Shown here in pieces: positions 1 to 13,435 of a stretch of 13,435 bases of DNA; within the stretch, counting starts at the first letter, position 1; each line of letters begins with the position of its first letter. The position numbers and the translations under genes were made by a program. The stretch is from Thermotogota bacterium. Lineage in GTDB: Bacteria; Thermotogota; Thermotogae; Petrotogales; Kosmotogaceae. The notes below the pieces were generated by a model that made no database searches, was not told where the DNA came from, and saw nothing but the letters and a program-made list of their open reading frames with translations. The DNA is taken from the NCBI GenBank assembly GCA_034660555.1, contig JAYEJL010000078.1, positions 1-13,435 of the forward strand. The letters are read 5' to 3'.

Positions 1-656
1 CCACCTGATTCAGGAAATTCTCTCAAATTCTTATAAATCACATTACCCATTAATTTACCATTATATGCAATACCTGTTGTACAGAATTGTCTGTGTTCAA
101 TATATTCCTGGACCATATAATTTTCACCGTTTATTTCCCTTAAAGCCTTTTCTAACTGAACTTCATTATCTATCTTTTTAATACCCATGGCACCACGATT
201 CTTCCTGGGCTTTAATACAAAGGGGAATTTCCATTCTGCCTGTTTAAAATCTTTTAGTAAAACAGTCCTGGGCACATCTATTCCAATATGTTTTGATAAT
301 TGAGTCATGGTGTATTTATCGTGGAGGACCATCAATTTTTCGTAGTCCTCAACCAGCATTTTGACTTTGTTTTTAAATCTTTCTTTATAAAATGAAAGTA
401 CATATGCTTCTTCAAAACTGGGAATTATGTATTCTATATTCTCCTGTTCAACAAAATCAAGGATAGATTCTATAAATAAATTGGCATTCTTACTAACTTC
501 CGGATAAACAAAACTCTTCTTGACATATTTTGAGAATGCACCACCATTCAATTTTATGCTATCTGCTGCATAGATTTCGTGTTTCTCAGCACTTAAAATT
601 CTAATCGTGTTCAAACCATACATATTTCTAGCTGTAGTAACCAATATTTTAGCCAA
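1..656 (-). CDS. ATP-grasp domain protein (putative carboxylate-amine ligase), 3' end truncated by the window edge
   Basis: Translated by hand. TTG start at 656 with SD-like GGTGGTGA at 670-663. The frame is open for 218 codons to position 1: MAKILVTTARNMYGLNTIRILS...FSKYV...IIPSFEE...LHDKY...IDVPRT...FPFVLKPRKNRGAMGIKKI...YMVQEYIE...REFPESG. The DK, P-x-V-x-K-P, glycine loop and VQEYI motifs are typical of ATP-grasp enzymes. Confidence 0.85.
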   Translation of the reverse strand, partial: MAKILVTTARNMYGLNTIRILSAEKHEIYAADSIKLNGGAFSKYVKKSFVYPEVSKNANLFIESILDFVEQENIEYIIPSFEEAYVLSFYKERFKNKVKMLVEDYEKLMVLHDKYTMTQLSKHIGIDVPRTVLLKDFKQAEWKFPFVLKPRKNRGAMGIKKIDNEVQLEKALREINGENYMVQEYIEHRQFCTTGIAYNGKLMGNVIYKNLREFPESG

Positions 657-699
657 TTGTTTTCACCACCAGCTCATATATATAATTTACTATAATCAC

Positions 700-728
700 A
701 TTATAATGCTTAATTCCCTCATATCCAA
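700..728 (-). promoter_or_regulatory. Sigma70/SigA-type promoter for the ATP-grasp gene
   Basis: The minus strand reads TTGGAT (728-723), a 17-bp spacer, then a perfect TATAAT (705-700), ending 43 bp upstream of the TTG start. Confidence 0.6.
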
Positions 729-856
729 GTCGAACCTCAATCAGAAGTAATTCTTCAAGAAAGTCTTCATTAATTTTAAAGTATCACTTTTAATTAACTT
801 TAATAGCACAAGAATGAAATGTTCAATAAGCAAATTTAATGAGCGATCAATACTTC

Positions 857-1876
857 TTACTCCAGTATTTCTTTCATGGCAGCTGAAACCTCCATTATAT
901 CTTCCTCAGTAATATCTTTGTTAGTAACAAATCTATACACACCATTTTCTGGAGGATTAATTTTTATTCCCTTTTCCATCATCAATTCAACCAGATTCAA
1001 CTTTTCATTATTGTTAAAAGTAAAGAAAATCATATTGATATCCAGTTGATCCTGCAAAACATTAACTCCTTTAATATCAGAGATTTTTTCTGCGAGTATT
1101 TTGGCATTTACGTGATCTTCTGACAATCTATCGATCATATGTTCCAGTGAAACAATACCAGCTGCTGCAATAATTCCTGCCTGGCGCATGCCCCCACCCA
1201 TAAGCTTTCTTCCTTTTTTGGCTTTTTCTATGAATTCTCTATCTCCGGCCAAAATTGAGCCTATGGGTGCTGCAAGACCTTTGGACAAACAGAACATTAC
1301 AGAATCAGCAGTTTTGGCAATTTCCTTTGGTTCAACATTCTGAGCAATGGATGCATTAAATATTCTTGCGCCATCCAGATGCACGGGAATATTGTATTTA
1401 TTAGCCAATTTTCTCACTTTTTCCAAATAATCAAGTTTAATAACCCTGCCGGATGAATGGGCATTTTCCATGCATATAAGACCAGTTTTTGGAAAATGAA
1501 TATCCTTTTCTCTTATTGAATTCTCAATTTTAGAAATTTCCGGTTGACCATCTTCGCATTCAAGCGTTCTCAGCTGAACTGAAGCAATTACAGAAGAAGC
1601 GCCAACTTCGTGGATAAATATGTGATTTGAATCAGCCAGTATTATTTCATCTCCCATATTGGTATGAGTCATAATTGCCAGTTGATTTCCGAACGTTCCA
1701 GATGGAACAAAAAGAGCATCTTCCTTTCCCAAAATACCGGCTGCAAGCTTTTCAAGTTTGTTTACGGTAGGATCATCTCCATAAACATCGTCTCCAACTT
1801 CTGCTTTATACATTGCTTTTCTCATTTTAGGTGTAGGTGTTGTAACGGTATCACTTCTGATGTCTATCCATTTCAT
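857..1876 (-). CDS. ltaE: Low-specificity L-threonine aldolase (PLP-dependent)
   Basis: Motifs IDIRSDTVT, VGDDVYGDDPTV, PSGTFGNQ, HLDGARIFNA, FCLSKGL (PLP lysine) and GGGMRQAG. I prefer the ATG at 1876 (SD GGGTGA 5 nt upstream) over the GTG at 1885 used by the ORF track. Confidence 0.93.
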   Translation of the reverse strand: MKWIDIRSDTVTTPTPKMRKAMYKAEVGDDVYGDDPTVNKLEKLAAGILGKEDALFVPSGTFGNQLAIMTHTNMGDEIILADSNHIFIHEVGASSVIASVQLRTLECEDGQPEISKIENSIREKDIHFPKTGLICMENAHSSGRVIKLDYLEKVRKLANKYNIPVHLDGARIFNASIAQNVEPKEIAKTADSVMFCLSKGLAAPIGSILAGDREFIEKAKKGRKLMGGGMRQAGIIAAAGIVSLEHMIDRLSEDHVNAKILAEKISDIKGVNVLQDQLDINMIFFTFNNNEKLNLVELMMEKGIKINPPENGVYRFVTNKDITEEDIMEVSAAMKEILE

Positions 1877-1881
1877 ATGTA

Positions 1882-3105
1882 TCACCCTTTCTCACTTATT
1901 CTCAATCGTACCAAAAAATATATCCCTGACATAAATAAACCACAAAGAACCAGTGCAAAAGCTATGCCTATGTTATCTGCCAAAAAACCTATGATAGGAG
2001 CAAGTACTGCCATGAGAATTGTTTTTAACTGAGATTCTGCAGAAAGACCTGATGCCATAGTTTTATGAGAGATCTTTTCACTAATATAAGATACATTAAG
2101 TGGCCTTCTCAAATTCTGCAGAACATACAAACCCATGAACATTAAAACAGTCACTATTCTTAAATCCAGATACTGGAATATTCCAGATAAAACTATCATA
2201 ATTGCCCCTACTATAAATGTAACATTAATTGCTGTCTCGATTTTGCCAATCTTTTTACTGATTTTATCAGCATTTTTAGAAGCATAACTTGTGGCAAGGT
2301 ATATGGAAAAGTATGCAACTCCAACTATTACTGACGTTCTCTTTTCGTTTTCAAAATTTAGCAAGAGCGGAAGCGAAAGAGCAAGTCCCTGCAAAACTGG
2401 TTGAAGATAAGCAGAAATAGTCTTAAAAAAAGCATCGAAAACTGTGCTGTTAAAAATAGCCTTAAGAGAGTATTTATTCTTAAATATTGAAAAAAAGATT
2501 TTGAATGTTTCCTTTTTGCTTTTCTTCTTTATTTCACCGTCAAGTTCACCTGGATAAGTAGTCAGATTTAGCAGATTACCAATGTATGGAATTAAAGCAG
2601 CAAGAAAAACAACTCTGTAATCCCCACTCCAGAAAACTATTCCCGCAGCTATTAAAGCGTTGAGCGCCGAACCCAACTGAGAGGCAGCCCGTGTTGCACC
2701 GTAGTATTCTGCTCTAGTATCCAGTACTTTATTTAATCTCAAATATTCCAGAATCATTGCCTTGTGTGTACCAGATCTTAAGGCTTCTCCCAGTCCAAAA
2801 AGCACCATTGCAATTGCGTAAACGAAAAATTGGGGAAAAAAGAAGAATATTAAAAATGAGATTATATAAGAGATCATTGCAAAAACCATAGATATCTTTC
2901 GACCGTAGAGGTCTGCAATAAAGCCTGTTGGTAATTCAAGGAGATTTGTAGATATTTCTCTGACAGAAAAAAGGATGCCTATTTGAAAAAAAGAAAAACC
3001 CATCTGTCTGAAAAAAAGGATGATAAACGGTTCAAAAAACCTCAGATTCTTTAGAAAACCATAAGAAGCAAACTTATAAAATTGTTTGTCCTTTTTTATA
3101 GCCAA
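1882..3105 (-). CDS. MFS transporter
   Basis: 407 aa with about 12 hydrophobic segments. Motif A-like ELPTGFIADLYGRK and C-terminal PIIGFLAD. TTG start with AAGGA upstream. Confidence 0.85.
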   Translation of the reverse strand: MAIKKDKQFYKFASYGFLKNLRFFEPFIILFFRQMGFSFFQIGILFSVREISTNLLELPTGFIADLYGRKISMVFAMISYIISFLIFFFFPQFFVYAIAMVLFGLGEALRSGTHKAMILEYLRLNKVLDTRAEYYGATRAASQLGSALNALIAAGIVFWSGDYRVVFLAALIPYIGNLLNLTTYPGELDGEIKKKSKKETFKIFFSIFKNKYSLKAIFNSTVFDAFFKTISAYLQPVLQGLALSLPLLLNFENEKRTSVIVGVAYFSIYLATSYASKNADKISKKIGKIETAINVTFIVGAIMIVLSGIFQYLDLRIVTVLMFMGLYVLQNLRRPLNVSYISEKISHKTMASGLSAESQLKTILMAVLAPIIGFLADNIGIAFALVLCGLFMSGIYFLVRLRISEKG

Positions 3106-3130
3106 TTACTATCATTCCTTTTTCAGTTTA

Positions 3131-4465
3131 CTAATCAATCACTCTTCTAGCCCATTCCCCTGATTTCAAACGCATAAATCCAAAGAAACCTTTAAATCCC
3201 TGTTCTGGTAACATCATTAAATAAACTAATGGTATAGACAACTTCAATACCAATCCACCAATTGCAACAAGTGGTATCCCAATTGCCCACAAACTAAAGA
3301 TTTCAAGAAAGAGAACCATCTTTGTGTCTCCGCCACTACGTAAAACACCTACAAGATTTACATTATTAAACATTCTTAATGGCTGAGACAGACCCATTAT
3401 AACCATTACAATGAGCAATGTGTTTTTTATGTCTTCACTGACATTATAAAAATCAATTATTCCCCATGAAAGTGCAATAACTCCTAATCCAGAGATTATT
3501 GCCAGTACAAGTGTAATTTTCAGGAGCACATGAGCATTTTTTACGGCACCTTCATAGTTATTTTTCCCCAACTCGGAACCAACCAGAACAACTGTAGCTG
3601 CTGAGACACCACCAAAGAAGATTAGTCCAAAACTGCCAATCGTGTGCTCAATATTTCTCACAGCTATTGCTTCCGTGCTCATTCTTGCGAGCACAACCGA
3701 ATACATTGTAATTCCAAGACTCCAAAAGAACTCATTGGCTATTACAGGTGACGCTATTTTCATCAATCTCTTGAAGAATATACTGTCAAAACTGAACAGA
3801 CTTTTTAGATTAATCTTTATTGGAGTCCAGTCTTTTCTTAACGAATAAATGTATAGGGAAAACTCTATGATTCTGGAGAATAATGTGGCAATTGCTGCAC
3901 CCTTAACACCCAATTCTGGGAAAAAGCCTATGCCGAAAATAAGTAAGTAATTGCTTATTGTATTAACAACAAGGGCAACTAAACTGATATACATGGGTAT
4001 CTTCGCTCTTTCCACTGTTCTCAAGACCATGACCATGATAAAGCTGAAGGATGTGAAAAAAGTTGTAAATGACACTATTCTGGAGTACTCAGCGCCAAGT
4101 TTAATCACAGCAATGTCATCGGTGAATAGAGACAATAAATGCTCAGGAAAAACAAACAACAAAACAAAAAATAACACCGCAGCTGAAATGGTTATCTTCA
4201 ATATATGTCCCACAGTTTTCTCTATGTTCTTTGTATCTTTTATGCCCCAATATTGGGAGACAAAAACGCCCGAACCACTTGCTGCACCAAATGTTATGAG
4301 CATAAGAATAAAAACTACCTGATTGACAATACCGACAGAAGCTATCGAAACAGCACCAAGCTGTCCTATCATAATATTATCAACAAGATTTAGCCCCACT
4401 GATATAAAATTCTGTATCGTTATAGGCACAGCAATATTAATGATTCTTCTGGTAAAATATGTCAA
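3131..4465 (-). CDS. MATE family efflux transporter
   Basis: 444 aa, polytopic. Motifs IAVPI, VDNIMIGQLG, SQYWG, PELGVKGAAIAT and GVLRSGGDT. The TTG start overlaps the upstream TGA stop (TTGA, 4465-4462). Confidence 0.9.
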   Translation of the reverse strand: MTYFTRRIINIAVPITIQNFISVGLNLVDNIMIGQLGAVSIASVGIVNQVVFILMLITFGAASGSGVFVSQYWGIKDTKNIEKTVGHILKITISAAVLFFVLLFVFPEHLLSLFTDDIAVIKLGAEYSRIVSFTTFFTSFSFIMVMVLRTVERAKIPMYISLVALVVNTISNYLLIFGIGFFPELGVKGAAIATLFSRIIEFSLYIYSLRKDWTPIKINLKSLFSFDSIFFKRLMKIASPVIANEFFWSLGITMYSVVLARMSTEAIAVRNIEHTIGSFGLIFFGGVSAATVVLVGSELGKNNYEGAVKNAHVLLKITLVLAIISGLGVIALSWGIIDFYNVSEDIKNTLLIVMVIMGLSQPLRMFNNVNLVGVLRSGGDTKMVLFLEIFSLWAIGIPLVAIGGLVLKLSIPLVYLMMLPEQGFKGFFGFMRLKSGEWARRVID

Positions 4466-5661
4466 CTTCTGAACCTTTCATTCACATGCGAACGGTCTTC
4501 TTTACTAAAAAATATCACTATCAGTCCACTAATAGCCATAATTGATGCCATAAATGTAAACATACCCGTGTATGTACTTTCGGCAATCAACCCTGCTGTA
4601 ACCGGTCCAACCATAAAGCCCAGCGAACGAGAAGATCTCAACAACCCGAGAAATTCAGCTCTTCTTTCATCTGGCGAATTCAGTGTGATAAAGGTAGAAG
4701 CACCGTTAATAAACGCTCCAAATGCAAGCCCGAGACATCCGTAAGCCAGTGCAATCATGATCCAGCTATTGGCTAATGCTAAAAATACAGCAGTCATGGA
4801 TGATAGGAAAATGCCTATCACCGTACTTGCCTTTGGACCAATTGCTGATATAAGTTTACCAAAAAGCAAATGAGAAAAAAACTGAAGGGCCGGGTTAATA
4901 CCAGAAAGAAGAACTGCAAATGACTTTGAAAGTCCAACTGACTCTGTCATGAAAATCGCTATCAAAGACATAATTCCAGCAATTCCAAGCTGACGCATAA
5001 AACTACCAAGATAAACAGCCCATAAACCGTTTTGCTTAAGAGGTGTAGAATCTACTGTAATGGGAAATATTCTGTGTAATATATTGCCATATCTTTCTCT
5101 AATATTGGTTCTTTTGGTTTCTTTTATCATTAAAGCGGGTAGAGCAGCCACAAAAACAAGCAATCCAAAAAAGAGTAGTGTATTTTGAACGCTTAGTACT
5201 ATCAATAACAAAGAAACGAGCACTCTTCCAAGAAACATACCCAGTGAACTTGCTGCATTAATAAATGATATCTCTCGTGAGGATTTGCCTACTGAATTAC
5301 CCGCACTAACTGTACTTACTGCAAGTACAACCGGTCTGAATCCTGACGAAAAGAAAGCAATTGCTCCCGCGAGCAAGATAAAATGATAAGGAATCTGTAA
5401 AAAGGCATAAAGAATGTAAAGAAAGCCTGGAAGCACAATAAGAAATATCATCAACGATTTCCTGTATTGTCTTTCATCAGCAAGTGCTCCCCATATTGGC
5501 GAACCAAATGTCATTACTCCGCCTCTGACAGTAGTTAGTAAACTTATAATAAATACTGAGGCTCCAAGTTCTCTAAGCCTCAATTGTAAAAGCATTCCAA
5601 AACTGAGTACTGCTGTAAATCGTAACAAAGCGGTTATGAGAAGCGGAAGTCGCCTTTTCAT
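4462..5661 (-). CDS. MFS transporter
   Basis: 399 aa with about 12 hydrophobic segments. Motifs PIWGALADERQYRK, FGKLISAIGPK and SLGFMVGPVTAG. SD GGAGG lies upstream of the ATG. Confidence 0.85.
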   Translation of the reverse strand: MKRRLPLLITALLRFTAVLSFGMLLQLRLRELGASVFIISLLTTVRGGVMTFGSPIWGALADERQYRKSLMIFLIVLPGFLYILYAFLQIPYHFILLAGAIAFFSSGFRPVVLAVSTVSAGNSVGKSSREISFINAASSLGMFLGRVLVSLLLIVLSVQNTLLFFGLLVFVAALPALMIKETKRTNIRERYGNILHRIFPITVDSTPLKQNGLWAVYLGSFMRQLGIAGIMSLIAIFMTESVGLSKSFAVLLSGINPALQFFSHLLFGKLISAIGPKASTVIGIFLSSMTAVFLALANSWIMIALAYGCLGLAFGAFINGASTFITLNSPDERRAEFLGLLRSSRSLGFMVGPVTAGLIAESTYTGMFTFMASIMAISGLIVIFFSKEDRSHVNERFRS

Positions 5662-5712: not shown

Positions 5713-5840
5713 CAGGCTGATTAAGGATTATTAAAAGAAGTTTTGTGAAACTGAAAACAATAAAAAACTCAGGGTACTTGATCATATAAATGCTGAGGTA
5801 AGACAAAAATAACTGGCATTTCATTAGTTTCAGCATTCTA

Positions 5841-5870
5841 CTAATTTCTCAAAGCGTTTTTAGAAATTAG
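5841..5870. repeat. 30-bp imperfect palindrome (operator or RNA hairpin)
   Basis: CTAATTTCT-CAAAGC|GTTTTT-AGAAATTAG. The 9-bp arms are perfect and 13 of 15 positions are symmetric. No U-tract follows on either strand. Confidence 0.6.
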
Positions 5871-6030
5871 CGGTATCATCTATTATCTCTTTTGTATTGT
5901 AATTCAGTAAATTATTTGTAAGGGCTCTAGCAAAAAGAACCGGGTTATCCTTTCAGTTTCTTGCCTACCACACATATCAAGAAAAACCTTCCCAATTCTT
6001 TTATGAATAGTAAACTACAAATATGTTACC

Positions 6031-6666
6031 TCATTGTTTGACCAATTTTCTTAACAAATCTACTGCGCCGGTACTATCTTCAGAATATCCATCTGCATCA
6101 ATTTCTTTTGCATAGCTTTCACTAACAGGAGCTCCTCCGATAATAACCTTAACTTTGTCTCTCAAACCTTCATTTTCAAGTGCTTTTATTACATTGGGCA
6201 TATTAATCATAGTACTCGTAAGAAGTGCTGAAATGAGTAGAAACCCTGGTTTCTCTTCTTTTACCGCTTTCACAAAAGCTTCTGGTTTTACATCTACACC
6301 AAGATCGACGACTTCAAATCCTGCTCCTTTTAACATCATGCATACAAGATTTTTCCCTATATCATGAAGGTCACCATCGATGGTTCCTGCAATAACTTTT
6401 CCTGCTTTCTTCACACCGCCCTTAACTAACAATGGCTCAATAATATCCATTGAAGCATGCATTGCCTTGGCAGCAACAAGAACTTCAGGAACAAAATAGT
6501 CACCTTCCTTAAATAACCTGCCAACTTCATCCATTCCGGGGATTAGTGAATCATCAAGTATTGTCTTTGCATCATAACCTTCAGACAGTGCTTGTTCTGT
6601 CAGTTCTTTTGCTGCTCCAGGATTGGTATTTACAATTGAATCTTTGAGTTTTTCTAGTAGGCTCAT
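6031..6666 (-). CDS. Stand-alone cobalamin-binding corrinoid protein (MtaC/MtbC/MtvC-like methyl carrier)
   Basis: 211 aa. N-terminal cap domain (LIPGMDEVGRLF...YFVPEVL.AA.AM), then the B12 motif DxHxxG (GDLHDIGKNLV, 6372-6355), GFEVVDLGVDV, SALLTST and IIGGAP. SD AAGGAGG. ATGA overlap with the GH38 stop. Confidence 0.93.
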   Translation of the reverse strand: MSLLEKLKDSIVNTNPGAAKELTEQALSEGYDAKTILDDSLIPGMDEVGRLFKEGDYFVPEVLVAAKAMHASMDIIEPLLVKGGVKKAGKVIAGTIDGDLHDIGKNLVCMMLKGAGFEVVDLGVDVKPEAFVKAVKEEKPGFLLISALLTSTMINMPNVIKALENEGLRDKVKVIIGGAPVSESYAKEIDADGYSEDSTGAVDLLRKLVKQ

Positions 6667-9308
6667 TTAGTGCCCTCCTTTAGTACAAGTTTTAATGTTT
6701 TTATTTCTTTCGACTTTAATCTTGTTGAAATGCCATCATTCACAACCAAATTGCCAGTAACTGTTTCATCCAATTTGCATTCGTACGCAGATTTTATTTT
6801 AAAGCTGCTTCTAATCTTTACATAATCTGTTTCAGATCCAAGATTTACAAATCGACATATTATTCCTTCCCCATCATTTGATCTTTTTAAAGCTGTTAGT
6901 TTTGTTGTTTTTGTTTCTATAGAAAAAGGTTCAATAATATAATCCTGGTTTCCACTGGAAGATATGGCTACAGGTATACTCTGATATCGTTCATTTTCCT
7001 TTATCAGTTCTTCCATAGAAGAAAAGAAAAACAAAGAATAGTCAAAGGAATAAGTACCGTGCATCTGTCCTTCCGGTGTTTCTATTGAAGGTCCAGCATT
7101 TCGTTTCATACATGAAAGTCCATATGGAGACCCAATATGTCCAACAGATCTAAGCAATGTGAGGTCTAAACTTTCTTTGGTTTTCACAAACTCGTATATA
7201 CCTCTATTTGCTATCGCGTAACCTTCACAACTTTTTCCTTCATATAACTCTCCAAACAACCCTTGATTAGGGAAAGCTGCTGGTGGATTTTCTATCCAGT
7301 GGTCAGGTTTCTTTTCATCAAAGAACTGTTTGTTATTTTTCTTTACAAGATCGAAAGGTGTTGTATAAAAAAAATCACCTGTAAAATTTTCAGGAATAAA
7401 TTTAATAAAAACTCTATGGTTGTCACAACGATTCAAAATTCTGGTTTTAAACTCAATTCTTTTTGAATCTTTTTTTAGCATTATTCTTGTATCGATTTCA
7501 ATTTTATCAGTTTCTTTACTTCGTGCCTGTCCATTATTGTCAAGTTTTTTTGGTATTTTGAATACATATTTAAACTTCATTGTATCTAACAAATAACTCT
7601 TTTCAATTTTAAATTCCATAAGTTTATCTAGACTACTAATTTCAACATTTTTTTTGGGTATTGAACTTACATAACCATCTCCGTTGTCCCCACTATCAAC
7701 AAAATGATTTGTTATTACTGATTTCGATGTTTCCTTATTGGTTACTTTTATTTCTCCGCTTTTCAGGAGCTCAATTGTTAAATATTCATTCTGAAGCTTA
7801 TCTGTTTCTTTCACATAAGAGGCTTCTTCCATTACGTTAGAAGCTTTCAATTTTAATTTGGTGAATCCCATTCCTGATAATTTCTTTCGAACAACTGCTT
7901 CTATTTCGTATACATCAAAAATAGGTGCTGAGCTACCAAAATGATCAAGTGCCTTTGTTCTTTTTTTCATTGCAATCAATTTACTGTCAAGTATTTCTCC
8001 ATTTTCATCTTCAAAAACCAAACCTTTTTTCTGCTGATTAAACATGCTTGCTAAAACATCTGCTGTGAAATGAATATATTCATCAGTATCGACAAAACCA
8101 GGATTGTAAATGAACAAATGATCCTGAGGTTCATTTGCTGAATTTCCCGACAAATTTACTAAAGAGCGTTTCACTATACTGTCATTTATCTGAGATGCCC
8201 ATTCAAAACGAGACTGAACATCCCTGTGTACCTCATCAGTACTGCAACCACCTATACTGTCATGTGCATGGTTCTTTAAGATCAGTTTCCACGATTTATC
8301 CAGGAACGCTTCCGGATATGGCTGTCCCTTCAACCAGCTGAGAACAGCCAACGGTTCAGTCACCTTTTCAATTTCATTCATCGCCTTCCAGTTTGCCTTT
8401 TTGTTATTGTATCGTGATGACAAAACATTTGGTAATATGAAATTCATAGCCCCTCTCTTTGATTTATTTACAGATCTTAACTCGCCTTTGATTACTGGAA
8501 GCATTTTCATGTTTTTAACATATCTTGCTTTTATTTCATCTGAAAGCCTATTCAACAAAACCTGTTCATAGCTATTTTCGATGTCATTATTTTGCATATA
8601 AGCAATAATGTCTGGTATTGAAACATTCAACTTCTTATGGTCACATCCATCCATCAATAAAACCAATCCTGTTTTTGTGTTCTCCGAGAATTCCTTTTTT
8701 AACTCTAGTAGCATTTCTTTGTCAACCTTTTTGCCTTCAGGGGTTACAGAAGCGTTGCAATATCCTATGGGCTCAGGCAATCTGTATGACATCAGTTTTG
8801 AACCATCTGCGCCTACCCAAATAAATTCCCAGGGTAAATCGTCACCGGAAATGCCTCGCCATAAAAGACATGTTTCTATATCAAAACCTCTAAGTATCTG
8901 TGGTATTTGTGAATTGTGTCCAAAGCTATCAGGCAAATAACCAAGAGATTGAATGCCTCCAAATTCTTTCGCAAGAGCTTTGCCATACATTAGATTTCTT
9001 ATTATTGATTCACCATCTACAAGAAATTCATCCATCTGCACATACCAGGGACCAATTCCTAATTTATCCGACTTCACAAGGTTAATTAATTTCTCCTTAT
9101 TTTCCGGGATAATCTCTAGATAATCTTCAAGCATCATTGTTTGACCATCAAGGTTAAAACAGGTAAATTCTTTATTACTCTGCAATACATCGATGAGTTC
9201 GTTTATCATCTCCACCAATCTGAATCTGAATTTTTGAAATGGCTGGTACCACTCTCTATCCCAGTGTGTATGGGATATAACAAAGACTTTCCCCTTTTTA
9301 CTTTTCAT
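6663..9308 (-). CDS. Glycoside hydrolase family 38 alpha-mannosidase (bacterial, MngB-like)
   Basis: SHTHWDREWY (metal ligands), LDGQ, IGPWY, GYLPDSFGH (nucleophile Asp at 8930-8928), GCDH, HAHDSIGGCSTDEVH and LTLLRSVG. I prefer the ATG at 9308 (SD GAGGT 6 nt upstream) over the TTG at 9311. Confidence 0.92.
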   Translation of the reverse strand: MKSKKGKVFVISHTHWDREWYQPFQKFRFRLVEMINELIDVLQSNKEFTCFNLDGQTMMLEDYLEIIPENKEKLINLVKSDKLGIGPWYVQMDEFLVDGESIIRNLMYGKALAKEFGGIQSLGYLPDSFGHNSQIPQILRGFDIETCLLWRGISGDDLPWEFIWVGADGSKLMSYRLPEPIGYCNASVTPEGKKVDKEMLLELKKEFSENTKTGLVLLMDGCDHKKLNVSIPDIIAYMQNNDIENSYEQVLLNRLSDEIKARYVKNMKMLPVIKGELRSVNKSKRGAMNFILPNVLSSRYNNKKANWKAMNEIEKVTEPLAVLSWLKGQPYPEAFLDKSWKLILKNHAHDSIGGCSTDEVHRDVQSRFEWASQINDSIVKRSLVNLSGNSANEPQDHLFIYNPGFVDTDEYIHFTADVLASMFNQQKKGLVFEDENGEILDSKLIAMKKRTKALDHFGSSAPIFDVYEIEAVVRKKLSGMGFTKLKLKASNVMEEASYVKETDKLQNEYLTIELLKSGEIKVTNKETSKSVITNHFVDSGDNGDGYVSSIPKKNVEISSLDKLMEFKIEKSYLLDTMKFKYVFKIPKKLDNNGQARSKETDKIEIDTRIMLKKDSKRIEFKTRILNRCDNHRVFIKFIPENFTGDFFYTTPFDLVKKNNKQFFDEKKPDHWIENPPAAFPNQGLFGELYEGKSCEGYAIANRGIYEFVKTKESLDLTLLRSVGHIGSPYGLSCMKRNAGPSIETPEGQMHGTYSFDYSLFFFSSMEELIKENERYQSIPVAISSSGNQDYIIEPFSIETKTTKLTALKRSNDGEGIICRFVNLGSETDYVKIRSSFKIKSAYECKLDETVTGNLVVNDGISTRLKSKEIKTLKLVLKEGTK

Positions 9309-9317
9309 CAATGTACC

Positions 9318-10535
9318 TCACTTTCTATAAAAGCCAAAATCATAAGCACTGTCATATAGCAGCACTATTTTTTGTGGAGTAACTTCTTTTTGAACATTAT
9401 GTATTGCTGAAAATACGAAGCCACCACCAGGAGCAAAAATATCCTCACGTTTTCTAATATCATCTTTAAGTTCATCAAGGGTTCCAAAGGGGAGAATATG
9501 CTGTGTGTCGCATCCTCCACCCCAAAATGTAAGATCTTCACCAAATTTCTTTTTCAGAACCTCGGGGTCCATCCCTCTGGCATTTGTTTGAACGGGATTT
9601 AATATTTCAATTCCAGCATCGATAAAATCAGGAATGAGTTTTATTACAGAGCCGCAGGAATGCAAAAAAATTCGAACATTTTTGTTCTTGTGTTTGATAA
9701 AATCGCATAATGTCTTCATGTGGGGTTTAAACATTTCTCTGAACATCTTTGGAGATATTTGAGAATTTTCTTGAGTACCGTAATCATCACCCAAAACAAT
9801 TATGTCGAGATATTTACCTACTCTGTTTAGATATTTCTCAAGATCGTGCAAGTATTTTTCTTCCAGTTTATTGAGAAAATACTCAATTAACGTTTTATCA
9901 GTGATTATTCGCTCCATAAATTCCTGATAACCAAAGTAACCATGTCCGGCCTCTAAAAAATTCCCGCCAAAAGAACCCATGATAGCACAATCAGTGTTTT
10001 CTCTAATCTCTTTAGCTTGTACTTCTAAAAAATCAAGCTCTTCATCGTTAATATATTCATCTAAAGTTTTATCTATTTCAGCCTTTTCTTTAACTCCTGA
10101 CAGTGGAAAATAACAACCGTCAAAATAATAACCACCTTTTGGCATGGTTGCGACCACTTTATTATTATTTTTAATTATTAGAGAGCCGTCACTTTCTACT
10201 TCTGGATAAAAGTCTTTTGGTACATAATATTCCCCACCATCAGGAAACATTTGAAATCTTTTCCAACCATTTATTTTAGTACCAAAACCACCATCTAGCC
10301 TTTTTAACTCAACAACATCTCCATGAACTCTTTCTCTTATATCATTTTCAACCAAAGCTAATTGTTGATAGATATCATATATCTTTATTTCTTTGTTCAT
10401 GCAATTAAGAAACTCCTTCAGATTTTTATAGGCAATTGCATGTATTCCAGTGGAACGCATCCCGCCCAAATCTATAGGAACCCTATCAGGCTCTTTATGA
10501 TTCAGTGTGGTTAACACCCTTTCTCTTGAAGTCAT
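9318..10535 (-). CDS. UroD/MtaA-CmuA superfamily TIM-barrel protein, putative corrinoid methyltransferase (HxC type)
   Basis: 405 aa. MTSRERVLTTLNHKEPDRVPID start, GDDYGTQ, ISPKMFRE, FLHSCG, ILNPVQ, FWGGGCDTQ and GGGFVFSAIHNVQ. It lacks the HemE RQAGR motif. SD AAGGGGGG. Confidence 0.85.
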   Translation of the reverse strand: MTSRERVLTTLNHKEPDRVPIDLGGMRSTGIHAIAYKNLKEFLNCMNKEIKIYDIYQQLALVENDIRERVHGDVVELKRLDGGFGTKINGWKRFQMFPDGGEYYVPKDFYPEVESDGSLIIKNNNKVVATMPKGGYYFDGCYFPLSGVKEKAEIDKTLDEYINDEELDFLEVQAKEIRENTDCAIMGSFGGNFLEAGHGYFGYQEFMERIITDKTLIEYFLNKLEEKYLHDLEKYLNRVGKYLDIIVLGDDYGTQENSQISPKMFREMFKPHMKTLCDFIKHKNKNVRIFLHSCGSVIKLIPDFIDAGIEILNPVQTNARGMDPEVLKKKFGEDLTFWGGGCDTQHILPFGTLDELKDDIRKREDIFAPGGGFVFSAIHNVQKEVTPQKIVLLYDSAYDFGFYRK

Positions 10536-10557
10536 ATATAATTAACCCCCCTTCTAA

Positions 10558-11553
10558 CTAATAACTGCCATATTTTTCTATGGCGTTTATCATCGAGACA
10601 TAATTTTCATACGGAACCCATTCTGGTATTGTATTGCTTGAACCACAACAATAACCGCCACCCGGGGCAAGCCCTTCAATCTTCCTTTTAACTTCTATTT
10701 CTATCATCTGAGGTGTTCCTCTGGTAAGAAAACTATCCACTTCGATGTTCCCAATAATACACAACGAATCTCCAAATCTGTTTTTCAACTCAAAAATATC
10801 CATACTCAATGGTTCAACAGGATGAATCGAATTGAATCCACAATCAACCAAATCATTCAGAACATTCCAGAGACATCCATCCGAATGGTACATAAAAGGT
10901 AACTCTCTTGCATGAACAAGACTTCCGAAGTGTCTGTACCATGGAAATATTAGCTTTCGATAGTGTTCAGGTGATAGCAATGTTGATGTTTTATATGCAA
11001 TGTCATCTGAATGCCATATTGCCCCAACTCCATCTATTTGTGTAACCTTATCGATAATTTCATACATTAAAGCCCCAACACGATCAACAACTGCCTTTAC
11101 GAGAGAATAATCTTCAATCAACTTTAATGCGAATGTTTCAAATCCCATTAACATCCAGCTTTCTTCAAAAACACCTGATAATGTACCGGAGATAACCTTC
11201 ATTTTTTTAGGGAGAACCCTTACAGCATTTTCCACTGGAGTGAAGTCTACTTCATCAATTGTTGGCCAGGGAAATGTTTTGAATTCATCCCATGAAGTAA
11301 TAGCTCCAGTGTGCTCATTTACCCATTCAACTCTTTCATGAAGAGTATAGGATGGAACTATATGAGCATAATCGTAGCCTGCTCTATACCAGAACTCAAC
11401 GACATTTTCAGTATCAACAACGGCATCCTTAACTTCTCTTTTTAAAAAATCAGACATAATTTTTCTATCTATCCATAGTTCAGCTTTTGGAACGTATCTA
11501 GGTTCACCTTCCAGCATTAAAACCTTTCTTAATTGATCAAAATCCCCTCTCAT
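10558..11553 (-). CDS. UroD/MtaA-CmuA superfamily TIM-barrel protein, putative corrinoid methyltransferase (HxD type)
   Basis: 331 aa. GEPRYVP, GVFEESWMLMGFE, SDDIAYK, LSPEHYR, MYHSDG, IHPVEP, IIGNIEV and GGGYCCGSSNTIP. No RQAGR motif. ATGA overlap with the upstream gene. Confidence 0.85.
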   Translation of the reverse strand: MRGDFDQLRKVLMLEGEPRYVPKAELWIDRKIMSDFLKREVKDAVVDTENVVEFWYRAGYDYAHIVPSYTLHERVEWVNEHTGAITSWDEFKTFPWPTIDEVDFTPVENAVRVLPKKMKVISGTLSGVFEESWMLMGFETFALKLIEDYSLVKAVVDRVGALMYEIIDKVTQIDGVGAIWHSDDIAYKTSTLLSPEHYRKLIFPWYRHFGSLVHARELPFMYHSDGCLWNVLNDLVDCGFNSIHPVEPLSMDIFELKNRFGDSLCIIGNIEVDSFLTRGTPQMIEIEVKRKIEGLAPGGGYCCGSSNTIPEWVPYENYVSMINAIEKYGSY

Positions 11554-13435
11554 TGATCCACCTCTTTACTTATAGATACGATGAGATTTTGAAAAGGCTT
11601 CAGTGAAACTTTTCTACAACTCCCTTTAAAAAATACCTTCTTATTTATGTCTTCGCAAATCGAAACAATTGTGTTTCTTGAACCTGTTAATTTCAAGCTA
11701 CCCCTTTTTCCTTCATTTTCCTTTAAAAGTAATTGCGCATTTTCATCCATACAGCCATCCAAAAAGTTTACTTCAATATTTTTTGTGCTTTCAAAATCAT
11801 GAAACCTTCCGCTAGAATTCGCACTTTTACCTTTGAAAGCGTTCATTTGAAATCTGTAATCCTTTCCATAAGAAAATAGCTCATCACTTTTCTTGCCTGA
11901 AGACAATTTTACGGAGAATATGTAAGGTTTACCATTTAAATATGGACTTGCAAATCGATTTTGCATGTTTCCATTAAGTAGTCGAAAGTAAATATTTGAT
12001 GTTTCAGTCAACGTTTTTCGAAATTTAAATGGTGATGGACTGGCAACATCAAAAAGGTTTATTCCCTTAAATGATAAATTTACTGATTTTTCATCATCTG
12101 CAATTTGGATAGCATCAAGAACTGTAAGCGCATCCTTGCCACTGCCTGAAATCAAATTATTCAGGTTTTGAATCTTCCCTGGAGTAGTGTAGTTGACTTC
12201 AGGTTTCACACTGTTTATACACCATTCGTTAAAAAGGAAATCAGAAGGACCAATGTCGTAAAGATAGTCAATTTTTAATGTCAAGTATAATTCTTTACTC
12301 TTATCTGGAAGAAATAATGTTTTTTTCATTGGTGAGCGATATTTTCCTTCTATTTCAATCTCAACAAACTGGCCTACTTCTTCTTTCCTAATAATATATT
12401 TGGCTGAACCTGGCAAAAAATCTTCAATAAACATTTCGCTGCTCTTCCCCGTATACAGTTCATCATGTAACGGAGCATTATCAAGGTTGTCTATGGGATT
12501 CACCTTTTGTCTGGTGATTAAAATCTTTCCAAAGTTCTTATTTTTCTCAACCAACTCACAATTGAGCTCCAGATCGACCACTGAAATAATATTCCCAAAT
12601 CCATCCAGTTTAATCCTGTAAAAATCATTTTCAATCTTTATTTGACCTTCTTTTACCTCCGGCTTTCTGCTATCATTTTCTCGATAATCTAACGAAAAAG
12701 TTCTGTAACTGAACGGTTCAATCATCACAGGACCAAAATAAACAGTATTTCCAAAAACACCAGCAGGTACAATTTTCCCGTTATCGTTATCTGTTATAGA
12801 GACTTTTTTATTCTTAAGCTCATTACTTTCATAGCAAACAATTGAATTTCTTGAAAAAGATAGAGAGTTAATTATTACAAGATCATTTCCTTCACAAAAA
12901 ATGCGATTCCTTTCTGCTTCAATTATTTTTTCAGAATTATGATAGGCTTTATGAATCCTTCCAAACCCCTCTTTTACCGCTTCTAATATTTCAAAGGTAT
13001 CTTCAGATTTATATACTCCACCACCACCAGAATGTTCATCAAAAGATGCCAGTCTTTCAAATTCTGTCTGAATTTCTTTGGAGAGGAAATTGCTGTTGTA
13101 ACTATCAAGCATTGCTGACCCATGCAGATTAGAAAAGGTCTTTTTCGCCAGATCGTTTTCTCTTGGATAACTTAATATATTTGATGTCCACCATCCATTA
13201 AAGTTTCCTGAAATTTTTTCTAGTTTATCTCGATTCGCTTCAAGTTGCTCAAAGAATGATGTCACAGTAGAAGTCTCAATTACAGGATTATCAAATTCTT
13301 TATTCCAGCGTTCTATAAGCTCAATAGGTTTGTAAATTGGTGGGACATTATCTATAGCCATCGGTATAGCGTAGTTGTCCAAACTGAATTTTGTTTCATC
13401 AATATAATTCATTTTTTCAATAATTTCAGTTTTCA
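11550..13435 (-). CDS. Divergent GH38-like glycoside hydrolase, N-terminus outside the window
   Basis: The frame stays open past the ATG at 13412 to the window edge (..KTEIIEKMNY), and that ATG has no SD, so the gene is truncated. DNVPP, 'IERWN...STVTSFFE', GWW, FDEHSGG, VIINSLSFSR, IENDFYRI and LLLKENEG resemble the end of the GH38 catalytic, middle and beta-sandwich domains. The catalytic N-terminus is not visible. Confidence 0.6.
   Translation of the reverse strand, partial: KTEIIEKMNYIDETKFSLDNYAIPMAIDNVPPIYKPIELIERWNKEFDNPVIETSTVTSFFEQLEANRDKLEKISGNFNGWWTSNILSYPRENDLAKKTFSNLHGSAMLDSYNSNFLSKEIQTEFERLASFDEHSGGGGVYKSEDTFEILEAVKEGFGRIHKAYHNSEKIIEAERNRIFCEGNDLVIINSLSFSRNSIVCYESNELKNKKVSITDNDNGKIVPAGVFGNTVYFGPVMIEPFSYRTFSLDYRENDSRKPEVKEGQIKIENDFYRIKLDGFGNIISVVDLELNCELVEKNKNFGKILITRQKVNPIDNLDNAPLHDELYTGKSSEMFIEDFLPGSAKYIIRKEEVGQFVEIEIEGKYRSPMKKTLFLPDKSKELYLTLKIDYLYDIGPSDFLFNEWCINSVKPEVNYTTPGKIQNLNNLISGSGKDALTVLDAIQIADDEKSVNLSFKGINLFDVASPSPFKFRKTLTETSNIYFRLLNGNMQNRFASPYLNGKPYIFSVKLSSGKKSDELFSYGKDYRFQMNAFKGKSANSSGRFHDFESTKNIEVNFLDGCMDENAQLLLKENEGKRGSLKLTGSRNTIVSICEDINKKVFFKGSCRKVSLKPFQNLIVSISKEVDQ

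Follow-up and report, generated by a model that had tools for sequence, protein, structure and literature searches.

The DNA examined here (the window) is an entire contig of 13,435 nt, JAYEJL010000078.1 (contig C78), from the assembly GCA_034660555.1 of a Thermotogota bacterium in the family Kosmotogaceae. It carries five minus-strand genes in which GH38 glycosidases are interleaved with two enzymes of the UroD/MtaA fold, called UroD1 and UroD2, and a stand-alone corrinoid protein. Judging from sequence, this system very probably carries out corrinoid methyl transfer, and its association with genes of glycan catabolism is real and recurrent. The function favoured here, with somewhat better than even confidence, is the demethylation of O-methyl sugars by a corrinoid O-demethylase within a glycan-utilisation locus. 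G000 denotes the assembly containing the window (2.1 Mb, 95.5% complete, 188 contigs), G001, G002, G003 and so on the genomes of relatives, and L-numbers fetched loci. The features of the window that matter to the argument are:

11550..13435, minus strand: truncated GH38-like glycosidase, 627 aa, the 3' two-thirds of its gene (open reading frame without its start, 97% identical to the G001 protein)
10558..11553, minus strand: UroD1, 331 aa, UroD/MtaA fold, candidate methyl-donor:corrinoid methyltransferase (MT1; Pfam URO-D)
9318..10535, minus strand: UroD2, 405 aa, UroD/MtaA fold, candidate MT1 (Pfam URO-D, AlphaFold2 (AF2) model)
6663..9311, minus strand: complete GH38 alpha-mannosidase-family enzyme, 882 aa (four GH38 Pfam domains)
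6031..6666, minus strand: stand-alone corrinoid (B12) methyl-carrier protein, 211 aa, with cap and Rossmann domains (Pfam)
5780..6020, minus strand: decayed, frameshifted 5' remnant of an MtaA-like acceptor methyltransferase gene (blastn, tblastn, alignment)

Calls of open reading frames (ORFs) on the window place the five genes at 11550–13433, 10558–11553, 9318–10535, 6663–9311 and 6031–6666. Together with the Pfam matches (URO-D twice, GH38, B12-binding), they bear out the order and orientation given by an earlier sequence-only reading of the window: GH38-like, two UroD/MtaA-fold proteins, GH38, corrinoid protein. The ATGA overlaps that it described at 11553–11550 and 6666–6663 are present, as is the 22-bp gap. 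Its 9-bp gap before the 882-aa GH38 gene holds for an ATG start at 9308, while a TTG start at 9311 leaves 6 bp. Its first gene is GH38-like by the G001 homologue, which has a GH38N domain, but is not a whole gene, being open at the contig end. A purine run like a Shine-Dalgarno sequence precedes every one of the five starts, and the spacing suggests that the five genes are co-transcribed. Promoter and terminator scans of the window gave chance-level counts (54 vs 50.9 and 9 vs 7.0), and an Rfam search of it gave no match. A metatranscriptomic contig covers 5895–10616 at ca. 91% identity, its depth profile being flat; a transcript cannot be demonstrated from it, and it was not used as evidence.

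The five genes are the 3' portion of a Kosmotogaceae locus of 15–17 genes that is cut by the contig end. In G001 and G004 this locus encodes, in order: two proteins without a family, a ROK kinase, a SASA esterase, the activator RACo, a sugar ABC binding protein, two permeases, a 728-aa GH38 with a signal-peptide-like N-terminus, a LacI regulator, a 928-aa GH38, UroD1, UroD2, the 882-aa GH38 and the corrinoid protein. An MtaA-like gene and then a CobW-like gene are added after the corrinoid gene in G003, G004 and G011. In G011 the locus also has its first five genes running divergently. No stretch resembling that of the window was found in the other stretches of DNA scanned. RACo lies upstream within the locus in all four same-genus genomes. 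With their RACo, importer and glycosidases, these sister loci uphold the earlier placing of a corrinoid methyl-transfer system within a carbohydrate-utilisation locus. The two conserved proteins at the head of the locus (612 and 590 aa; L237:3118-6741, G001) have no Pfam family. A 54% homologue of the 612-aa protein is found near UroD2 in the distant locus L041, and the ESM Atlas returned deacetylase-like leads for it, all below 0.9.

Several lines of evidence point to methyl transfer. The corrinoid protein has Pfam B12-binding and B12-binding_2 domains and the DxHxxG motif (D99-x-H101-x-x-G104), and matches MtgC/MtbC/MtaC-type models, every score being under the cut-off. A complex of UroD2 with the corrinoid protein was predicted with a score of 0.79 (best control 0.00), above a mark reached by 116 of 157 solved pairs and 2 of 215 mismatched pairs. 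The runs share at least 70% of contacts, and the partner pLDDT (predicted local distance difference test) is at least 89. The occurrence of RACo closely tracks that of UroD2 among 40 relatives: it was found in 14/14 genomes with a close UroD2 orthologue, 2/3 with a weak match and 1/23 with no UroD2 match. The distant UroD2 set comprises 77 loci, the best 80 of at least 587 confirmed stretches minus three from the host family. RACo was found in 71 of these 77 genomes (46/50 and 25/27), compared with baselines of 1/14 control genomes and 16/101 sampled Acidobacteriota; among the UroD2-bearing Acidobacteriota of the first distant set it was found in 13/14. A corrinoid-protein match was present in 47 of the first 50 distant genomes, in one case solely in a long MetH-sized frame. 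Several core loci of Acidobacteriota have a UroD2-like gene next to genes for a corrinoid protein and RACo. In G005 and G010, sugar genes once more surround genes for a corrinoid protein, RACo and an MtaA-like protein.

Both UroD enzymes match Pfam URO-D (68 bits for UroD1 and 53 for UroD2, cut-off 23.9). Against MtaA-type NCBIfam models they score 50 and 33 bits, where the cut-off is 400, and the HemE model TIGR01464 matches neither at E 0.01. The PDB matches of UroD1 are MtaA (4ay7, E=5e-5) and CdmB (9rui, E=0.09). The AF2 model of UroD2 has a pLDDT of 94, and MtaA ranks first in its Foldseek search. Structure alignment gives a VIA Z of 26.3 to UroD 1j93 (root-mean-square deviation 3.1, 313 aligned) and 24.9 to MtaA 4ay7 (3.4, 312 aligned), with 18% sequence identity to the latter. 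CdmB is absent from the UroD2 fold-match lists, which excludes nothing, and the ESM Atlas held nothing beyond URO-D for UroD2. The UroD2 family is large – 7,987 of 8,000 scored candidates were homologues – and the closest named homologues among the matches listed are from Kosmotogaceae (the cultured species Kosmotoga arenicorallina, 69%, and Mesotoga prima, 60%).

The putative ligand positions suggest which chemistry these enzymes perform. They are H292-C294-H379 in UroD2, where E195, D250 and D251 are also invariant in 53 homologues, and by alignment H223-D225-N307 in UroD1, along with D183-D184; the Asp-Asp motif is common to both. In UroD-family S-methyltransferases the ligand set is His-Cys-Cys, and in the O-methyltransferases other residues take the place of one or both Cys (PMC10418091). 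The full His-Cys-Cys set is kept in the MtaA-like proteins on G000 contigs C97 and C144 and is missing from UroD1 and UroD2, so by this criterion the latter two fit O-methyl rather than S-methyl chemistry. We infer that UroD1 and UroD2 are candidate donor-side O-demethylases, with the MtaA-like proteins as candidate thiol methylases.

The sugar side of the proposed function is seen in the neighbours of these genes. Carbohydrate genes (defined as glycosidases, carbohydrate-binding modules, sugar transporters, kinases and isomerases) make up 32 of 137 direct neighbours of UroD2 homologues. Among control genes, taken from 16 unselected stretches across these genomes, the share is 3 of 76 (p 2e-4). 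With Pfam labels alone the count is 23/137 vs 3/76 (p 0.008), since 9 of the 32 labels came via BLAST to Pfam-labelled proteins; both p-values overstate the case because kin are not independent. A further eight neighbours are sodium symporters, and ten are ambiguous. The second gene caller overlooked some true neighbours, among them genes for GH38 and symporter proteins in L101 and L110 and for ABC permeases in L072, and the count for the test set is lower for it. For UroD1, whose family was sampled from metagenomes in which some contigs may be redundant, 21 of 135 direct neighbours are carbohydrate genes. The linkage to carbohydrate genes, whose lack would have told against the sequence-only reading, is therefore conserved. 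Nine of the 77 distant UroD2 loci have a GH38-type gene, directly upstream on the same strand in seven, and often followed by a symporter gene. These loci belong to Planctomycetota, Hydrogenedentota and Chloroflexota; a quick tree, built without L110, puts them on branches apart from the Kosmotogaceae. Neighbours found across phyla include RhaT, rhamnose mutarotase, FGGY, SIS, galactokinase and glycosidases of families GH2, 10, 29, 36, 95, 106, 116 and 123.

The full locus encodes three types of GH38, and a zinc HxD, nucleophile Asp, acid/base Asp and middle-domain His – roles that we take from GH38 enzymology – are kept in the alignment of the 882-, 928- and 728-aa types. In the 882-aa enzyme these residues are H16/D18, D128, D221 and H350; its closest PDB chain is 2wyh (E=1e-78), and its best NCBIfam match, the mannosylglycerate hydrolase model, reaches 514 bits where the cut-off is 1138. 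The 627-aa fragment at the contig end corresponds to residues 302–928 of the 928-aa protein in G001 (L016:7767-10553), with 97% identity. It has no Pfam match of its own, while the G001 protein matches GH38N with E=2.5e-19. The fragment retains the Asp and His counterparts of D221 and H350; the zinc HxD and nucleophile motif are absent from it. The 928-aa type has no PDB sequence match and is ca. 23–27% identical to the other GH38 types; its sugar may differ from an alpha-mannoside. O-methylmannose occurs in algal, archaeal and actinobacterial glycans.

GH38 genes are also found outside this locus. In G016, G018 and G022, a GH38 of 1020–1046 aa is directly downstream of RACo, apart from the UroD2 locus (L230, L231, L232; Mesotoga-type), and contig C165 of G000 encodes a GH38 that is 45% identical to this type, without RACo. 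The locus L030 (G018:C135) encodes a GH78 rhamnosidase, a GH1, three UroD-fold proteins and a DeoR regulator, opposite an L-rhamnose isomerase-like gene and class II aldolases, and is a candidate methyl-rhamnose version of the system.

The genes of the full locus would fit together as follows. The signal-peptide-like GH38 and the ABC importer would take up oligosaccharides of a substituted, probably alpha-mannose-rich glycan, and the two cytoplasmic GH38s and the esterase would trim them. UroD1 and UroD2, using a metal Lewis acid with O-type ligands, would transfer the methyl group of an O-methyl sugar to Co(I) of the corrinoid protein, the two enzymes probably serving different positions or different sugars. 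The demethylated sugar would enter metabolism via the ROK kinase, and RACo, from what is known of its family, would re-reduce oxidised Co(II). An MtaA-like enzyme would then move the methyl group to sulfide, giving methanethiol, or to homocysteine, giving methionine.

This last step replaces the earlier suggestion that the pathway yields a C1 unit, which found no support: no folate methyltransferase, MTHFR (methylenetetrahydrofolate reductase), MetH, MetE or CdhD was found in the Kosmotogaceae searched. PF00809 has one match per genome, of the size and score of DHPS, in G000 and five relatives, one of them a single-contig genome. AcsE-like queries had no tblastn match in G000. Homocysteine methyltransferase, MetH, MetE, MTHFR and CdhD were not found in G000 and the four or five relatives searched per family, PF02574 was not found in 5/5 relatives, and no second methyltransferase (MT2) that methylates tetrahydrofolate or tetrahydromethanopterin was found in the host-family members searched. 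No folate, acetyl-CoA or MetH/MetE route for the methyl group was thus found in the genomes searched. Methanol from methyl glycosides was also considered as the donor, and is unlikely as MtaB was found in 0/10 genomes.

With no folate route found in the Kosmotogaceae searched, methylation of a thiol acceptor (sulfide or homocysteine) by an MtaA-like enzyme is proposed as the likelier sink. A gene for such an enzyme, scoring below the TIGR01463 cut-off, is present in 14/14 relatives with close UroD2, and also in 3/7 family members without any UroD2 match. The copy that once followed the corrinoid gene in the window is a remnant: the region 5780–6020 matches the start of the G003 gene (blastn 69% over 309 nt; tblastn 39% over 28 aa) and its translation has stops. 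The lesions are identical in G001 and G002, and the gene is intact at that position in G003 and G004. The CobW-like gene of G003, G004 and G011 is gone after the remnant. G000, G001 and G002 carry a different MtaA-like gene, with His-Cys-Cys, beside galT-galK, which G003 and G011 do not have; this second gene looks like a replacement for a needed function. The in-operon protein has a C-terminal thioredoxin-like CxxC domain (L018:1184-2551, L035:1878-3266).

Other hosts may differ in their methyl sinks. The Mesotoga-type corrinoid locus (L029, L024, L026, L027) has a stand-alone gene resembling the MetH activation domain, though the MetH homocysteine domain was not found in the family members searched. 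In distant hosts, core loci (L112-L121 and L125, Pfam-scanned on one representative per cluster) encode RACo, DUF1638, homocysteine methyltransferase, AcsE-like proteins, MTHFR and a sugar porter in varying combinations, and in these hosts the methyl group may go to methionine or folate.

A number of observations, beyond the kinship of the loci noted above, weigh against sugar demethylation as the function of this system. No strictly carbohydrate neighbour is present in 48 of 75 UroD2 and 56 of 74 UroD1 scorable loci. The corrinoid gene lies inside the fetched locus in only 3/77 (UroD2) and 5/80 (UroD1) cases. In several Mesotoga-type genomes, a corrinoid locus that has no glycosidases retains a UroD2 paralogue together with a UroD1-like gene. 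In a random sample of Acidobacteriota, two of the three non-centre genomes with close UroD2 lack a RACo match; both encode a stand-alone corrinoid protein. The passing score of the predicted complex may reflect likeness to solved methyltransferase-corrinoid complexes. In the intact in-operon MtaA-like protein, Phe replaces the first His ligand. A UroD1-like subgroup with an HACG motif is found directly before UbiA-like genes (L157, L166, L183, L191), with a UbiX-like gene preceding three of the four and UbiD upstream in L183, in what looks like a quinone-biosynthesis run. Finally, RACo, the importer and LacI were not found in the G000 assembly.

The last point raises the question of whether the locus still works in this strain. 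Independently of its chemistry, the G000 copy may be a decaying half that no longer functions, since the front half of ca. 15.4 kb, including RACo, has no match in the assembly; this is judged possible but less likely than not. An unbinned contig would look no different from a real loss. The flanking gene starts contig C25 with a 33–45-nt repeat, resembling an insertion-sequence end, that is found at seven other places; this repeat end (bases 1–45 of C25) falls ca. 200 nt upstream of the point at which the locus begins in G001. The in-operon acceptor gene is only a remnant, the B12-domain gene near galT matches over just 109 of 342 aa, and a contig from a possible source sequencing run ends at the identical base, 13435. 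Against this, the four complete ORFs are intact and 99–100% identical to those of G001, the end of C78 has no repeat and 600/600 nt of it align to G001, and a contig of a related strain extends 837 nt beyond it. The state of the assembly (188 contigs, 95.5% complete) also tells against decay, and so does the presence of RACo in all four same-genus genomes.

Of the explanations that change the chemistry, one keeps the corrinoid machinery and makes the donor a methoxy-aromatic or other non-sugar aglycone, imported or released with the sugars. It is rather unlikely. The characterised O-methyltransferases of the UroD fold are phenolic O-demethylases (PMC10418091, PMC8630106), and the UroD1-like loci adjoining UbiX/UbiA genes would suit an aromatic donor, but the neighbours of UroD2 and UroD1 across phyla are specific to sugars (RhaT, rhamnose mutarotase, FGGY, galactokinase and glycosidases). 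MFS and MATE exporters follow the operon in the genus, as MFS/efflux genes accompany mto (PMC8630106); these exporter genes are 369 bp off, however, and do not follow the locus in G011.

It is also improbable that the methyl group is carbohydrate-bound in some form other than a ring methyl ether: as a methyl phosphodiester (e.g. methyl-phosphomannose), a methyl ester, an N-methyl group or part of a methylated cyclitol. The best model for the 882-aa GH38 is mannosylglycerate hydrolase, whose substrate is a phosphorylated mannoside. Recurrent neighbours include two protein types usual in cyclitol pathways, GFO dehydrogenases and xylose-isomerase-like barrels. Hydrolysis, though, is the normal fate of esters, and an esterase is encoded in the locus itself. 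Two different MT1 paralogues and a diversity of glycosidase neighbours would better fit positional isomers of an ether.

That the UroD-fold proteins are not methyltransferases at all (e.g. sugar-acid decarboxylases or hydrolases), with the corrinoid gene as a passenger, is very unlikely. The fold of UroD2 is equally close to true UroD and MtaA (Z 26.3 vs 24.9) and distant loci rarely have the corrinoid gene alongside, but this explanation leaves the co-occurrence of UroD2 with RACo (71/77 distant genomes; relatives 14/14 vs 1/23), the UroD2-like genes beside corrinoid and RACo genes in Acidobacteriota core loci, the predicted complex and the lack of a HemE match all standing against it. The reverse direction, in which the methyl group of a methylthiol is placed onto sugars for biosynthesis or tagging, draws on the ability of MtaA-like proteins to demethylate methyl-S and methyl-Se compounds (PMC10418091) and is highly improbable: the setting is catabolic (importer, LacI, three glycosidases and kinase), and the scan of the locus genes, two of which remain family-less, identified no glycosyltransferase.

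Removal of methyl ethers from sugars by a corrinoid enzyme would extend several known systems. The closest are Odm/Vdm of Acetobacterium dehalogenans, Mtv of Moorella thermoacetica and Mto of Methermicoccus shengliensis, in which an MT1 of the UroD superfamily, a stand-alone corrinoid protein and an ATP-dependent activator are clustered, as in the sister loci (PMC8630106, PMC10418091); the two MT1 paralogues also have a parallel in MtoB1/B2 of Mto (PMC8630106). Unlike in those systems, the methyl-transfer genes of the Kosmotogaceae locus lie amid genes for sugar use (glycosidases, ABC importer, LacI, ROK kinase), and a pterin-binding MT2, MTHFR and CdhD were not found in the host-family members searched, so the methyl group is apparently not fed into folate C1 metabolism. 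MtaA (methylcobamide:coenzyme M methyltransferase, 4ay7) and CdmB (9rui) share the fold, and the HxC motif is present in UroD2. In contrast to MtaA and MtbA, UroD1 and UroD2 are far below the NCBIfam cut-offs and have the third Cys replaced; the MtaA-like proteins on C97 and C144 are closer to MtaA, yet also below cut-off.

Type 1 mlp clusters resemble the locus in having several UroD-family proteins, a corrinoid protein and Ram/RACE with no folate methylase (PMC10418091), and a corrinoid protein and Ram-type activator without a nearby folate methylase were also found in G001, G003 and G004. For mlp clusters, disposal of the methyl group onto sulfide or into methionine has been proposed (Kountz and Balskus, PMC10418091). 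The Mlps are more than 25% identical to MtaA, have His-Cys-Cys and act on methyl-S and methyl-Se compounds (PMC10418091), whereas UroD2 is 18% identical with H-C-H, and UroD1 has H-D-N. Unlike type 1 mlp clusters, the window enzymes sit in sugar loci with at most one MtaA-like gene per locus. A split methionine synthase occurs with a RamA-like protein and DUF1638 (PMC5764234); the RACo core loci of some distant hosts hold DUF1638 (9/20) or homocysteine methyltransferase (7/20), while neither was found in G000.

We know of no anaerobic solution to the problem of sugar methyl ethers. These ethers block sugar catabolism and make glycans recalcitrant, and an O2-dependent solution is the P450 6-O-methyl-D-galactose demethylase of marine bacteria (PMC6292453). 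That enzyme shares the job proposed here, removing the methyl ether from a monosaccharide of a polysaccharide, but it is an oxidative monooxygenase with formaldehyde as product (PMC6292453), and the proteins are unrelated. It is the sole sugar demethylase that turned up in the open-access literature searched, where no description of a corrinoid sugar demethylase was found; subscription journals and supplements were outside this scope, and the supplements of PMC10418091 might list Kosmotogaceae clusters.

Two other gene groups complete the picture of the strain. Beyond a 369-bp gap, the window encodes at 3–5661 (minus strand) two MFS proteins flanking a MATE protein, followed by a threonine-aldolase-like enzyme dependent on pyridoxal phosphate and ATP-grasp proteins. 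This group is kept in the genus and is probably a separate unit. Elsewhere in G000, B12-domain matches on C57, C135 and C165 resemble, by their N-terminal sequences, ornithine and lysine aminomutases and methylmalonyl-CoA mutase, so cobamides probably have other uses in this organism.

The widest form of the proposal is that O2-independent, B12-dependent removal of sugar methyl ethers is carried out across many phyla by two undescribed MT1 families of the UroD fold, with the methyl group discarded onto sulfide by an MtaA-like enzyme in Kosmotogaceae; taken whole, this is put forward tentatively, as less likely than not. The apparent lack of a folate acceptor suggests that the methyl group goes to a sink so far undescribed for O-demethylases. 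The locus offers candidate enzymes for this chemistry, and would give a role to the large, unannotated UroD2 family. If the proposal is true, methylated glycans would give rise to methanethiol in oil fields and in anoxic brines and sediments.

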